A stretch of 61,916 nucleotides of DNA, the filler included. It is 3 parts of 3 records of this genome, joined end to end, with 100 filler letters (N's around TTAATTAATTAA, not from the genome) between each part and the next. Parts side by side here need not be neighbours in the genome. Positions count along the whole stretch, not along the records: positions 1 to 23,271 come from SRR20825006_1526; 2 more parts are not named here. One strand, 5' to 3'. A program made the translations under genes and the position numbers. The notes under the pieces are model-generated. The model searched no databases. It saw nothing but the letters and a program-made list of their open reading frames with translations, and was not told the origin of the DNA. Below are positions 427-8,796 of the stretch, one piece after another. Each line of letters starts with the position of its first letter. Positions within the stretch are counted from its first letter, which is position 1.

Positions 427-450
427 GTCAGCTTTCGGCCAGTAGCGGAC
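427..450 (+). repeat. 24-bp imperfect palindrome, copy A (GTCAGCT-N10-AGCGGAC)
   Basis: Aligns ungapped with copies at 1442-1465 and 8773-8796; lies 40 bp beyond the stop of the 491-1324 gene. Confidence 0.6.
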
Positions 451-490
451 GTAAACTTGTTTCCTTAATAAGAACCTGTTGGAACGTTTT

Positions 491-1324
491 TTATTCCATA
501 TCCCATTCTAATGAACTTTGGCTTGTGAATGAATCAGGAGCTGTGAATTTCTCCAAATATGGAGAAGCTCTGACGTGATTCATCAAACGCCAAAACCATT
601 GTTTAGATAGTTCGTTTTCTAAGCCTTCTGGATACTCATATTTATATGAAAATCCATCATTTGCTCTTTTATGACATGAAATATAGATCGGCGTTAGATA
701 CGCTTGAATCCCCCACCGAACATCATTTAATAATTGCGCCATCCAAGTGCCGTAGTATATGAAATAGTTCTCATCAAGATGTTCTTGGAAGTCTTCTAGT
801 GCGAGAGGTATCAGCTCAAGTGGTACAACATAATCGTGCTCTGTGAGGATTTTGTGTATCTCTTTCGATACACCAGTTAATCTGGATATATTGTGCTTCG
901 AATGATTGCCTGAAATTTTCAAGAAGTCCATTCTTGAAACTTCGATCTTTGCTTCTATATCGAGCGTTGGAAGACATAATTTTAGCGGAGCCTTAAACTC
1001 AAGCCAGTTGACTAACTCATTTAGTGCCTTTTGAAGATCAGTTACCTCTTTATTGAAACTCTTGCTTTGACAAGTCTCGCTAAGTACGTTTATGCACGAT
1101 CCTGACACGCCTGTTAATTTACTATCTCCAGCTTCCTTTGCAAAATCCAAGAAACGAATTACAAATAGTGAACGATGGATAAAGTCCTTAAAATAGACCT
1201 CGGCCTCACCTATCGTTCTTGAACTTTTCCTCACGTCAAGCAAAGCATGGTTCACCATATTGTTGAGAGATTCAACGCAAATGCACAGGCCTATAGTTTC
1301 CTTTTCTATTGAGTTAATTTCCAT
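491..1324 (-). CDS. Low-GC hypothetical protein (277 aa), possibly HEPN-like
   Basis: Long ORF; ATG at 1324 preceded by GAGGA RBS; GNHSKH resembles a degenerate RxxxxH motif; visibly AT-richer than the czc cluster. Confidence 0.75.
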   Translation of the reverse strand: MEINSIEKETIGLCICVESLNNMVNHALLDVRKSSRTIGEAEVYFKDFIHRSLFVIRFLDFAKEAGDSKLTGVSGSCINVLSETCQSKSFNKEVTDLQKALNELVNWLEFKAPLKLCLPTLDIEAKIEVSRMDFLKISGNHSKHNISRLTGVSKEIHKILTEHDYVVPLELIPLALEDFQEHLDENYFIYYGTWMAQLLNDVRWGIQAYLTPIYISCHKRANDGFSYKYEYPEGLENELSKQWFWRLMNHVRASPYLEKFTAPDSFTSQSSLEWDME

Positions 1325-1441
1325 TTTTCCTCGATTATAATAGTAGAGCCCCAATAGAGATTAGTTTCATTTTTATTTTAGTCATGCATTTCCTCTAAGA
1401 ATATAATTCCACTACCTAGCTTGTTCAAACTTTTGGTAAGT

Positions 1442-1465
1442 GGCCGCTTTGGGTCGGTTTTGGCC
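1442..1465 (+). repeat. 24-bp imperfect palindrome, copy B (GGCCGCTTTGGGTCGGTTTTGGCC)
   Basis: Shares the exact 13-mer CCGCTTTGGGTCG with copy C; sits at the low-GC/high-GC junction. Confidence 0.6.
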
Positions 1466-1515
1466 AAAGCACCACCAAGCCACAAAAATATAATACGACA
1501 CCACGAGAAGCCGAC

Positions 1516-1544
1516 TTGATTAGTGGACCCATGCGGCCTACTAT
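1516..1544 (+). promoter_or_regulatory. Putative sigma70 promoter of the czc cluster
   Basis: TTGATT-17 bp-TACTAT, about 30 bp upstream of the first gene. Confidence 0.5.
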
Positions 1545-1573
1545 CAGGGCACAAGCTCGAACTCAGGTAGAAG

Positions 1574-7600: not shown

Positions 7601-7761
7601 CGCTCAATGTCGGGATTGGCAGCGAGGTGCAGCGTCCGCTTGCTACCGTCGTCATCGGCGGTATCATCTCGTCGACCCTGCTGACACTTGTGGTTCTGCC
7701 GGTGCTCTACAGCCTCTTTGGCCGCAAGCCGAAGTTGACCAAAGCGGGTAAGGCAGCCTAA
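4603..7761 (+). CDS. czcA: Heavy-metal RND efflux transporter, CusA/CzcA family (1052 aa)
   Basis: [35 protein letters not shown] and [20 protein letters not shown] motifs. Confidence 0.97.
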
Positions 7762-7777
7762 CACCCCAAACCTGTCA

Positions 7778-7803
7778 TGAGGTGGCCCTTCGGGGCCACC
7801 TCA
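7778..7803 (+). other. Perfect 11-bp hairpin with a cUUCGg tetraloop between czcA and dmeF
   Basis: TGAGGTGGCCC-TTCG-GGGCCACCTCA; no strong U-tract follows. Confidence 0.75.
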
Positions 7804-7831
7804 GAGATTTCTCCAAAGTAAGGAACATGAA

Positions 7832-8761
7832 ATGCACGCGGATAATATGAGCAAGTGGACACATGATCATGACTTCCATGGTGCGAGTGACCATGCCGAG
7901 AAGCGCACACGCTGGGTGGTGTGGCTGACCGTCATCATGATGGTGGCTGAAATTGCGGCGGGCGTTACCTTTGGCTCCATGGCGCTATTGGCCGACGGGT
8001 GGCATACGGGCACCCACGCCGCAGCGCTCGGCATCACGCTGTTTGCCTATGCATACGCGCGCAAGCATGCAGACAACGATGCGTTCAGCTTCGGCACCGG
8101 CAAGGTGAGCGTGCTGGGAGGCTATTCAAGCGCTATTGTGCTCGGGGTTGTCGCACTTTTGATGGCGGTTGAATCGGTGGAACGGTTGATCACGCCACAG
8201 TCGATCCAGTTCAACCAAGCCATTGGTGTTGCGGTGCTGGGGCTCGTGGTAAATATCGCCAGTGCCTTCATGCTTGGTGGCCATCATCATCATGGCGAGC
8301 ACAACCACGAGGGCCATGGTCACAGCCACCACCATCATCACGACCATAACCTGCGCGCAGCCTATCTGCATGTGATGGCGGACGCGCTCACGTCTGTCCT
8401 TGCCATCGTTGCCCTGCTGGCCGGCAAATCGTTCGGCTGGGTGTGGCTCGATCCTGTGATGGGCATCGTCGGTGCCGTGATTATCACCAAATGGGCAATC
8501 GGGCTTGGCAAGGATACCGCCGCGATCCTTCTGGACCGGCACGATGACGATGCCGCGCGCGAGAAGATCATCACCGTGATCGAAGACAGTGGGGATGACA
8601 AGGTAGCCGACCTGCACGTGTGGCGGCTCAACTCAAACCAGCTCGCCGCTATTGTGTCTGTGGTGGCACACGCACCGCAACACCCCGATCACTACAAATC
8701 CCGTATTGAACGCGAAATCGGCATTTGCCACCTCACTGTCGAGGTGCATGAGTGCAGGTAA
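7832..8761 (+). CDS. dmeF: CDF-family Co/Ni/Zn efflux transporter
   Basis: SMALLADGWH, FSFGTGKV, His-rich loop, HDHNLRAAYLHVMADALTS, DLHVW. Confidence 0.9.
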   Translation: MHADNMSKWTHDHDFHGASDHAEKRTRWVVWLTVIMMVAEIAAGVTFGSMALLADGWHTGTHAAALGITLFAYAYARKHADNDAFSFGTGKVSVLGGYSSAIVLGVVALLMAVESVERLITPQSIQFNQAIGVAVLGLVVNIASAFMLGGHHHHGEHNHEGHGHSHHHHHDHNLRAAYLHVMADALTSVLAIVALLAGKSFGWVWLDPVMGIVGAVIITKWAIGLGKDTAAILLDRHDDDAAREKIITVIEDSGDDKVADLHVWRLNSNQLAAIVSVVAHAPQHPDHYKSRIEREIGICHLTVEVHECR

Positions 8762-8772
8762 GGTTGCGGAAT

Positions 8773-8796
8773 GTCCGCTTTGGGTCGAGAGCGGCT
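8773..8796 (+). repeat. 24-bp imperfect palindrome, copy C (GTCCGCT-N10-AGCGGCT)
   Basis: Begins 12 bp after the dmeF stop; GC content drops immediately downstream. Confidence 0.6.

Follow-up and report, generated by a model that had tools for sequence, protein, structure and literature searches.

Palindromic sites around a czc-dmeF block as possible junctions of mobile gene modules in Alphaproteobacteria

The locus examined here raises the question of what three short, similar sites lying between its genes represent. The sites, designated A, B and C, flank a single low-GC gene and a czc-dmeF cluster, and a preliminary description of the sequence had read them as three direct 24-bp recombination sites of a gene-capture array that divides an island into cassette-like modules. 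They lie in a stretch of 61,916 nucleotides, referred to here as the window, whose positions 1-23271 are 100% identical to G001:C1:901054-924324, a part of the single 4.18-Mb contig of genome G001, which was used as the reference genome. The analysis presented below suggests that A and C are members of a palindrome family of Alphaproteobacteria, that B retains half of such a palindrome, and that the sites, taken as a whole, are best explained as junctions of mobile gene modules moved by a site-specific enzyme acting in trans, a reading that we hold to be, on balance, probable.

A palindrome family behind the three sites

When the sequence was read directly, all three 24-mers were found to be present, and the exact 13-mer reported to be common to B and C, CCGCTTTGGGTCG, was confirmed. 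The sites are as follows:

427..450, + strand: site A, GTCAGCTTTCGGCCAGTAGCGGAC (GTCAGCTTT-CGGCCA-GTAGCGGAC); CGGCCA-loop palindrome, presumed left-end junction of a module
1442..1503, + strand: site B (1442-1465, GGCCGCTTTGGGTCGGTTTTGGCC; left arm and loop only) with the adjoining 38 bases
8773..8796, + strand: site C, GTCCGCTTTGGGTCGAGAGCGGCT (GTCCGCTTT-GGGTCG-AGAGCGGCT); GGGTCG-loop palindrome, right-end junction of the czc-dmeF block

All three are intergenic, as previously described: A lies between two convergent gene ends, B upstream of both of its flanking genes, and C begins 11 nt after the dmeF stop codon. The shifts in base composition noted at B and C were likewise recovered, with a GC content of ~0.37-0.39 over 451-1500 versus 0.55-0.65 over 1650-8700. 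From the window alone, the similarity of A, B and C is weak and barely above chance. A search for CCGCTTTGGGTCG with up to two mismatches yielded 3 matches versus 1.13 expected, a count reached by 8 of 100 shuffles, and the pattern GTCCGCT-N10-AGCGGAC, with up to three mismatches, yielded 4 matches versus 1.53 expected (2 of 100 shuffles reach 4).

Sequence comparison with other genomes assigns A and C, and B as a half-site, to a palindrome of 28 bp, ATGTCCGCTTT-GGGTCR-AAAGCGGACAT, in which two 11-bp arms enclose a 6-bp loop (an 11-6-11 build). Scanning one genome per species for GTCCGCTTT-N6-AAAGCGGAC located at least 128 loci, against an estimated ~17 expected by chance. These loci fall mostly in Alphaproteobacteria (Pseudolabrys, Xanthobacteraceae, Sphingomonas, Caulobacter, Maricaulis and others), with a few in Gamma- and Betaproteobacteria, and several copies per contig are present in Pseudolabrys and Xanthobacteraceae assemblies. 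Translated copies of the repeat (MSALGQKRT-like) are presumably common in "hypothetical proteins" of Bradyrhizobium and its relatives. The consensus of 134 copies is AATGTCCGCTTTGGGTCAAAAGCGGACATT, the most frequent loops being GGGTCA (45 copies), GGGTCG (21), GGGCCA (11) and GGGTGG (7). Immediately flanking the fixed stem, 75 copies have a T/A pair and 8 have a C/G pair; the covariation score of this pair was reached by 1 of 500 shuffles.

A weight matrix was built from these 134 copies, all from other genomes, and applied to the 61.9-kb window. The stems of the training copies are fixed by the search pattern, and the matrix is therefore harsh on arm mismatches. C ranked first (20.9 bits) and A second (13.9 bits), the next independent match scoring 1.4 bits, and none of 300 Markov-1 random sequences of 23 kb reached 13.9 bits, the highest value among them being 10.0. 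Since a matrix derived from other genomes ranks them as the top two sites of the window, A and C are regarded as real family members. The overall score of B is -12.9, decomposing into 19.0 bits for its left half and -31.9 for its right half; B is a half-site, carrying only the left half-copy of the palindrome. A scores alike on both strands. Neither the matrix nor a relaxed arm scan recovered the more degenerate candidate that had been proposed for 398-421.

Within the window's genus, the palindrome is low-copy and not enriched, and it is not a genome-wide repetitive extragenic palindrome (REP) there. A covariance model of the family gave 0-9 matches per genome at E<=1, with both strands counted, across 41 relatives. 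In G001, GTCCGCT-N10-AGCGGAC with up to two mismatches occurs at 18 sites versus 29 for the reversed control, and CCGCTTTGGGTCG with up to one mismatch at 10 versus 17 for its control; perfect 7-base arms were found at 11 sites across the 41 genomes, versus 16 control sites. Exact 15-mers are present in the genus at counts far above the estimated expectation of ~0.4 for each: GTCYGCTTTGGGTCG has 14 copies (25 genomes), 2 of which lie within genes and may be due to chance, and CGGCCARAAGCGGAC, from which site A differs by one base, has 13. Genome-wide scattering, named beforehand as an outcome that would speak against a recombination function, is seen for this motif in other Alphaproteobacteria but is absent from this genus.

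The family is apparently undescribed. An Rfam scan of window positions 1-10000 returned no family at the sites, its only results being a tRNA and one sub-threshold chance match. The motif is absent from the survey of CGTC REPs (PMC3733652; text and four supplements, figures aside) and from the text of PMC12306157. Literature searches with a 12-mer and its complement returned no paper, and those with 9-mers returned primer-type matches only.

Site pairs and block edges in related genomes

Two site types can be told apart by their loop and better-kept arm. C-type sites, such as B and C, combine a good left arm with a GGGTCG loop, and A-type sites, such as A, combine a CGGCCA loop with a good right arm. 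Half-site patterns for the two types were searched independently on both strands, allowing up to one mismatch, and sites lying within 25 kb of each other were considered pairs. With genus totals of 69 A-type and 42 C-type matches, 13 A-C pairs were obtained, versus an estimated ~1.5 by chance. In 12 of the 13 pairs the A-type site lies upstream of the C-type site on the same strand; one pair has the reverse order and none has its sites on opposite strands. Spacing within pairs ranges from 0.99 to 20.2 kb, and the cargo is unrelated between pairs. The window sites follow the same arrangement, both A-B (1,006 bp apart) and A-C (8,337 bp apart) having the A-type site upstream of the C-type site on one strand.

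The A-type loop and the reverse complement of the C-type loop are alike at 4 of 6 bases, and the two sites of a pair can therefore be read as inverted repeats, CGRCCM-AAAGCGGACAT, running inward from each end. The earlier view of the sites as direct repeats in the same orientation is doubtful, given that in relatives CGGCCA-loop sites behave as opposed partners of GGGTCG-loop sites. The three sites are not equivalent: A and C belong to the family, B retains half a site, and A most likely serves at the left end as the partner opposed to the other two. As a separate observation, family-like doublets, 57 bp from start to start, occur at the two ends of a 20-kb stretch of G002:C3, at ~238.8 kb and ~259.0 kb (L272, L305); in the doublet at 259.0 kb the two sites face each other, and elsewhere the sites are single.

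Block edges fall in or at such sites in three independent comparisons. The first concerns genome G012, which has two copies of a 4,474-bp unit (99.98% identity) that occurs at no other place in five genomes. Its left edge lies within an A-type site, where the outer arms of the two copies read GTTCAC and GTCAGC and are followed by the identical CTTTCGGCCAAAAGCGGACAT. On the right, the unit stops directly after GTGTCCGCTTTGGGTCG, at the GGGTCG of a C-type site, beyond which the two copies continue with the differing outer arms GAAGCAGAC and AAAACGGTC. Its 11-bp inner arms are perfect and are followed outward by 6-10 bases on the left side and by at most 6 on the right side, only approximate ends being definable because flank and unit have bases in common. 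A search for the empty site of this unit found none in relatives, where its two flanks are not neighbours.

In the second comparison, G024 and G002 share a locus between a sodium symporter gene and a FAD (flavin adenine dinucleotide) oxidoreductase gene at which both sites are kept in both genomes, and the DNA between the sites is unrelated (1.2 kb in G024, 0.97 kb in G002). The C-type sites of the two genomes agree at 8 of 9 bases in the outer arm but at only 10 of 15 in the inner arm and loop, a pattern that matches the expectation for an inner part moving along with the insert. Six other genomes of the genus have the symporter and oxidoreductase genes 46-55 bp apart, with no site seen between them by eye.

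The third comparison involves the window itself. Positions 1501-8788, comprising the czc-dmeF block, are 91% identical to G013:C4:405724-412965, with flanks that are unrelated on both sides. The right edge of this homology falls within site C, at 8788: both sequences read GAATGTC(C/T)GCTTTGGGTCGA, and the homology stops after GGGTCGA. Beyond this point the window continues with GAGCGGCT and G013 with AAATGGAC, and the outer arms are AGAGCGGCT in the window versus AAAATGGAC in G013. The expectation that homology breakpoints would fall inside the 24-mers is thus borne out at the right edge of the czc block, but not at its left edge, 1501, which lies 36 bp beyond B. The genes of the two putative modules of the window are:

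491..1354, - strand: low-GC cargo gene; conserved hypothetical protein of ~277-287 amino acids, no Pfam family, GC 0.37
1501..8788, + strand: czc-dmeF block; Pfam OEP, HlyD_D23, ACR_tran and Cation_efflux
1574-1933: small open reading frame (ORF) of the czc block
1959-3320: outer-membrane factor
3322-4584: membrane-fusion protein
4603-7761: RND pump
7832-8761: CDF transporter (dmeF)

The content of the modules varies widely. The G012 unit carries an IS110-family DEDD transposase (PF01548 and PF02371), a protein kinase and small ORFs, and a third G012 module holds MarR, SnoaL, MFS and PEP mutase genes. The G023 module is a 10-kb catabolic cluster, and those of G024 and G002 contain small unknown ORFs. 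No similarity was detected when module proteins were compared with each other, and module GC ranges from 0.37 to 0.53, the cargo being mostly of lower GC. The low-GC gene of the window belongs to a family of wide distribution: 178 homologues were identified at E<=0.001, with no functional name among the 120 listed. At six metagenome loci (L306-L311), relatives of this gene are flanked by sequences that look by eye like attC sites (GCCTAAC...GTTAGGC), and the gene family seems to be an integron cassette gene elsewhere. The 24-mers A, B and C and their immediate flanks, read directly, contain no GTTRRRY or RYYYAAC core.

Proposed mechanism and alternative explanations

If the sites are module junctions, a module would start with the CGGCCA loop followed by the arm AAAGCGGACAT and would end with the arm ATGTCCGCTTT followed by the GGGTCG loop. 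The module ends would then be 11-bp inverted repeats set a few bases inward, and the outer palindrome arm would belong to the recipient place. Applied to the window, A and B would bracket a 1.0-kb single-gene module, C would form the right end of the czc-dmeF block, and A-C would be a composite. A module could move in one of two ways: it might insert into a form of the palindrome that has a short loop, or two site pairs might exchange what lies between them. When a unit with IS1111-like extensions is removed, the joined flanks (GTCAGCTT followed directly by TCGAAAACGGTC, and similar junctions) may be read by eye as resembling such a short-loop palindrome.

The leading candidate for the enzyme would be a DEDD transposase of the IS110/IS1111 type, and the G012 unit itself encodes an IS110-family transposase. 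Elements of the IS1111 type are described, in part of PMC11187229, as having 11-13-bp subterminal inverted repeats with extensions of 6-7 bp on the left and 3 bp on the right; REPs serve as insertion targets of IS110-family elements, and a module without a transposase is mobilised by ISPpu9, according to part of PMC12288879. The geometry of the modules, with 11-bp subterminal inverted repeats and a few bases beyond them, would be compatible with this type. An alternative candidate would be a tyrosine recombinase acting as proposed for Xer on pdif modules, which the 11-6-11 build and the opposed pairs would fit equally well.

Several observations weigh against the sites being module junctions. 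The copies in the window are decayed, A and C having 3 arm mismatches each and B lacking one arm. No site marks the left edge of the czc block (1501), which instead coincides with the end of a 60-bp unit (1444-1503) starting with B, and no left-end site was found in G013 within 840 bp of the block. As for the pairing, the two pairs of the G012 unit are copies of one event and two A sites are counted twice, so that the 12 pairs rest on 10 A sites; among the best 17 A-type sites, 10 have a partner in this configuration and 7 have no recognisable one. The contrast between a conserved inner arm and a decayed outer arm is partly built in by the half-site searches, which does not apply to the pairing statistic. 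At the shared locus, the G024 insert exceeds the site-to-site span by ~130 and 335 bp, and more than one event is therefore needed there; the empty loci lack a palindrome, and simple insertion into a palindrome is not supported. Regarding the enzyme, no recombinase is linked to the sites in general. IS110-family genes adjoin A-type sites only in the G012 unit (five genomes), family sites were found neither at three homologue loci nor at the G001 homologue of the G012 transposase, and the clade of this transposase is present in only 2 of 251 genomes of the class (E<=1e-30). No DEDD transposase is present in the A-C span of the window or in the modules of G023, G024, G002 and the third one of G012.

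Sequencing reads were also considered. Of the 23 listed runs, 18 contain part of window 1-9400, and the Logan contigs of four runs over this region, which are short and much broken, show no excision joints at A, B or C. One Logan contig ends at 437 and one starts at 8773, among breaks in many places. Because the contigs are so short and broken, the read data neither support nor weaken the model.

The rival that must be weighed most carefully holds that these are ordinary REP-like intergenic palindromes without a dedicated recombination role, and that block edges coincide with them since breaks are tolerated in intergenic repeats, whose short homology could serve illegitimate or repeat-mediated recombination. 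The scattered, multi-copy occurrence of the family in other Alphaproteobacteria is in keeping with this account, as are the lack of an enzyme linked to the sites, a trait shared with the CGTC REP superfamily of Alphaproteobacteria (described as lacking a transposase in part of PMC3733652), and the location of copies at operon ends, of which C, 11 nt after a stop codon, is an example. It does not predict, however, the strict configuration seen in 12 of 13 pairs, nor a block edge that falls on the identical base within the site both in G012 and when G013 is compared with the window, and it sits poorly with the absence of enrichment in the genus (18 versus 29 control sites in G001; 11 versus 16 across 41 genomes). 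Moreover, arms of 9-11 bp are short for RecA-type recombination. We consider such an origin possible but rather unlikely.

A role in ending transcription, in stabilising RNA as hairpins or, as operators, in binding a regulator of the flanked genes would account for the palindromic build and for the position of C just after dmeF, and the perfect copy of G009 folds at -19.4 kcal/mol. The window copies, on the other hand, fold at -5.4 (A), -15.3 (B) and -10.0 kcal/mol (C), no better than shuffles (z of -0.2, -1.6 and -0.6). None of 6 terminator-like sites in 1-9500 coincides with A, B or C, no T tract is present at the sites, the flanked genes are functionally unrelated across modules and no Rfam family matches, which together make this role improbable. 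Chance resemblance of the three 24-mers is less probable still, to the point of being very hard to credit. The weak window-only statistics would allow for it, with an estimated ~28 shared exact 13-mers expected in 62 kb, but it is contradicted for A and C by the matrix ranking, which none of the 300 random sequences matched, and the 14 and 13 exact 15-mer copies in the genus argue against it as well.

Among these accounts, junctions of mobile gene modules therefore remain the preferred explanation. Of the original proposal that A, B and C are recombination sites of a gene-capture array, the real family, the position of its members at the edges of movable blocks and the pairing rule stand, while the enzyme and the movement are what we infer. 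The sites probably delimit opposed-site gene modules, or REP-targeting mobile units, built on an apparently undescribed repeat.

Genomic setting, known systems and implications

The window is composed of two unrelated contigs joined by an artificial linker, with all three sites in the first. This follows from the linker itself (positions 23272-23372, a run of N, then TTAATTAATTAA, then N), from the differing GC and gene content of the two parts, and from the lack of a G001 match for the second. Positions 1-23271 have 50-60% GC and are identical to G001, whereas positions 23373-61916 have 36-42% GC and carry SusC/SusD-type and Porin_10 genes typical of Bacteroidota. Cross-phylum transfer within the window, considered at one point, was dropped once the N...TTAATTAATTAA...N linker was read. 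An alaS fragment at 23324-23878 owes its truncation to the contig end rather than to an insertion. In G001, the sequences at the two ends of the first contig are repeats, positions 1-135 matching two other places (92% and 89%) and 23162-23271 matching one (93%), and these repeats probably explain the assembly break there.

The G001 counterpart of the first contig is accessory DNA that holds the czc region between two Tn7-like gene sets. Set 1 (tnsA-tnsB-tnsC-tniQ) lies ~6-11.6 kb upstream of window base 1 in G001 (L055 6649-11928), and set 2 (tnsA-like, tnsB, tniB/tnsC, tniQ) occupies window 11081-15707 in the same orientation. A self-comparison of a 40-kb stretch of G001 revealed no Tn7-type end repeats matching A, B or C, and the ends of the two Tn7-like sets were not found. 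The nearest Phage_integrase gene (15714-16862) follows set 2 within the Tn7-like element. The terms array and island used in the preliminary description hence do not fit the locus: no array adjoins an integrase, none being present in 1-9400, and what had been called an island belongs to the first of the two contigs of the window, where the sequence is identical to that of G001, with a Tn7-like element on either side. One further feature, which gives context for where the accessory DNA ends on the right, lies between the czc block and the second Tn7-like element:

9322..9414, + strand: tRNA gene of 93 nt, an unusual length; ARAGORN tRNA-Ile(tat), Rfam tRNA at 52 bits

Conservation in relatives is confined to its first 32 bases (9324-9355), and the gene may be altered from the anticodon loop onwards. 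Nearby, at 8929-8996, lies a 67-bp AT-rich stretch with repeated GTATA words that is 84% identical to intergenic DNA in G002 and G019 and may act as a promoter or operator. Directly before its counterpart in G019, the sequence resembles by eye the end of a small helix-turn-helix gene.

The 60-bp unit that begins with B has a relative elsewhere in the reference genome. It is 82% like G001:2079146-2079205, located ~210 bp inside one end of an island of ~49 kb (G001:C1 ~2,078,950-2,127,600; L054, L059, L060) that splits comM at its ELPEF-coding site. An A-type site lies 12.7 kb upstream of this copy of the unit, and another is found near the far end of the island. The island has terminal inverted repeats, G(C/A)TTTTAC(C/T)ATCT, with only CC appearing duplicated; it holds ORFs of 779, 708 and 192 amino acids without Pfam matches, followed by a tyrosine recombinase of 460 amino acids, and both of its ends bear the family palindrome together with a CCACAAAAAT(A/C)TAA motif. 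In the window, the unit also contains a TATAAT at 1489-1494. Contigs have loose ends at 1515 and 969 in run X1 and at 108, 3024 and 4340 in run X4, which we take to read like a template-switch oligonucleotide, and these two runs may be complementary DNA. The loose end at 1515 falls 21 nt beyond the TATAAT, a hint that the czc operon may be transcribed from an outward promoter.

Four known systems invite comparison. The likeness to pdif modules of Acinetobacter plasmids drawn in the preliminary description is apt as a likeness: there, as here, 28-bp 11-6-11 sites stand opposed around varied, swappable cargo, different modules occur between the same sites, edges lie in or at the sites and no recombinase is found inside the module. 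The sites described here differ in being chromosomal, in occurring in Alphaproteobacteria and in having one arm near-invariant across modules, and their sequence is presumably unlike the dif consensus, as the preliminary description had also held. Elements of the IS1111/IS110 group and their transposase-less satellites (IS621, ISPpu9/ssr9, ISPpu10 in REPs) appear to share with the present units 11-bp subterminal inverted repeats, short extensions and palindromic REP-like targets. Cargo-only modules of this kind can be mobilised in trans, as described in parts of PMC11187229 and PMC12288879, and one autonomous-looking unit with a DEDD transposase is found here, in G012. The units described here, in contrast, span 1-20 kb and mostly lack a transposase, and related transposase genes elsewhere are not flanked by sites.

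REPs, bacterial interspersed mosaic elements and the CGTC REPs (Di Nocera et al. 2013, PMC3733652) are likewise short, scattered intergenic palindromes of variable copy number, found in Alphaproteobacteria and without a dedicated transposase. CGTC REPs have stems of 8-9 bp, loops of 4-5 nt and an unpaired tag, as given in part of PMC3733652, whereas in the present family the TGTC end is paired, the stem has 9-11 bp and the loop 6 nt. REPs associated with RAYT (REP-associated tyrosine transposases, IS200-like Y1) reach high copy numbers, unlike the 0-9 matches per genome seen in the 41 genomes. Integron cassettes also consist of single- or multi-gene cargo of foreign composition bounded by short structured sites, but attC sites measure 57-141 bp, are arranged head-to-tail and have intI by the array; the sites described here measure 24-28 bp, form opposed pairs and have no intI beside them.

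A broader possibility, which we offer tentatively and regard as doubtful, is that Alphaproteobacteria possess a chromosomal cassette-exchange system in which the 28-bp palindromes would be crossover sites for a trans-acting RNA-guided DEDD enzyme or an unrecognised tyrosine recombinase, opposed pairs would let cargo of 1-20 kb be swapped between loci and species, and the REP-like copies would be its footprints. Module edges could be located in genomes by a testable rule, namely two sites on one strand of which the upstream one has a CGGCCA loop and the other a GGGTCG loop. The enzyme, along with any guide RNA, could be sought in the G012 unit, a candidate autonomous element. If the proposed role of the sites is true, a very common alphaproteobacterial repeat would gain a function, the plasmid pdif modules would have a chromosomal counterpart outside Acinetobacter, and metal-efflux and catabolic blocks would have a way to hop between marine Alphaproteobacteria without a recombinase of their own.

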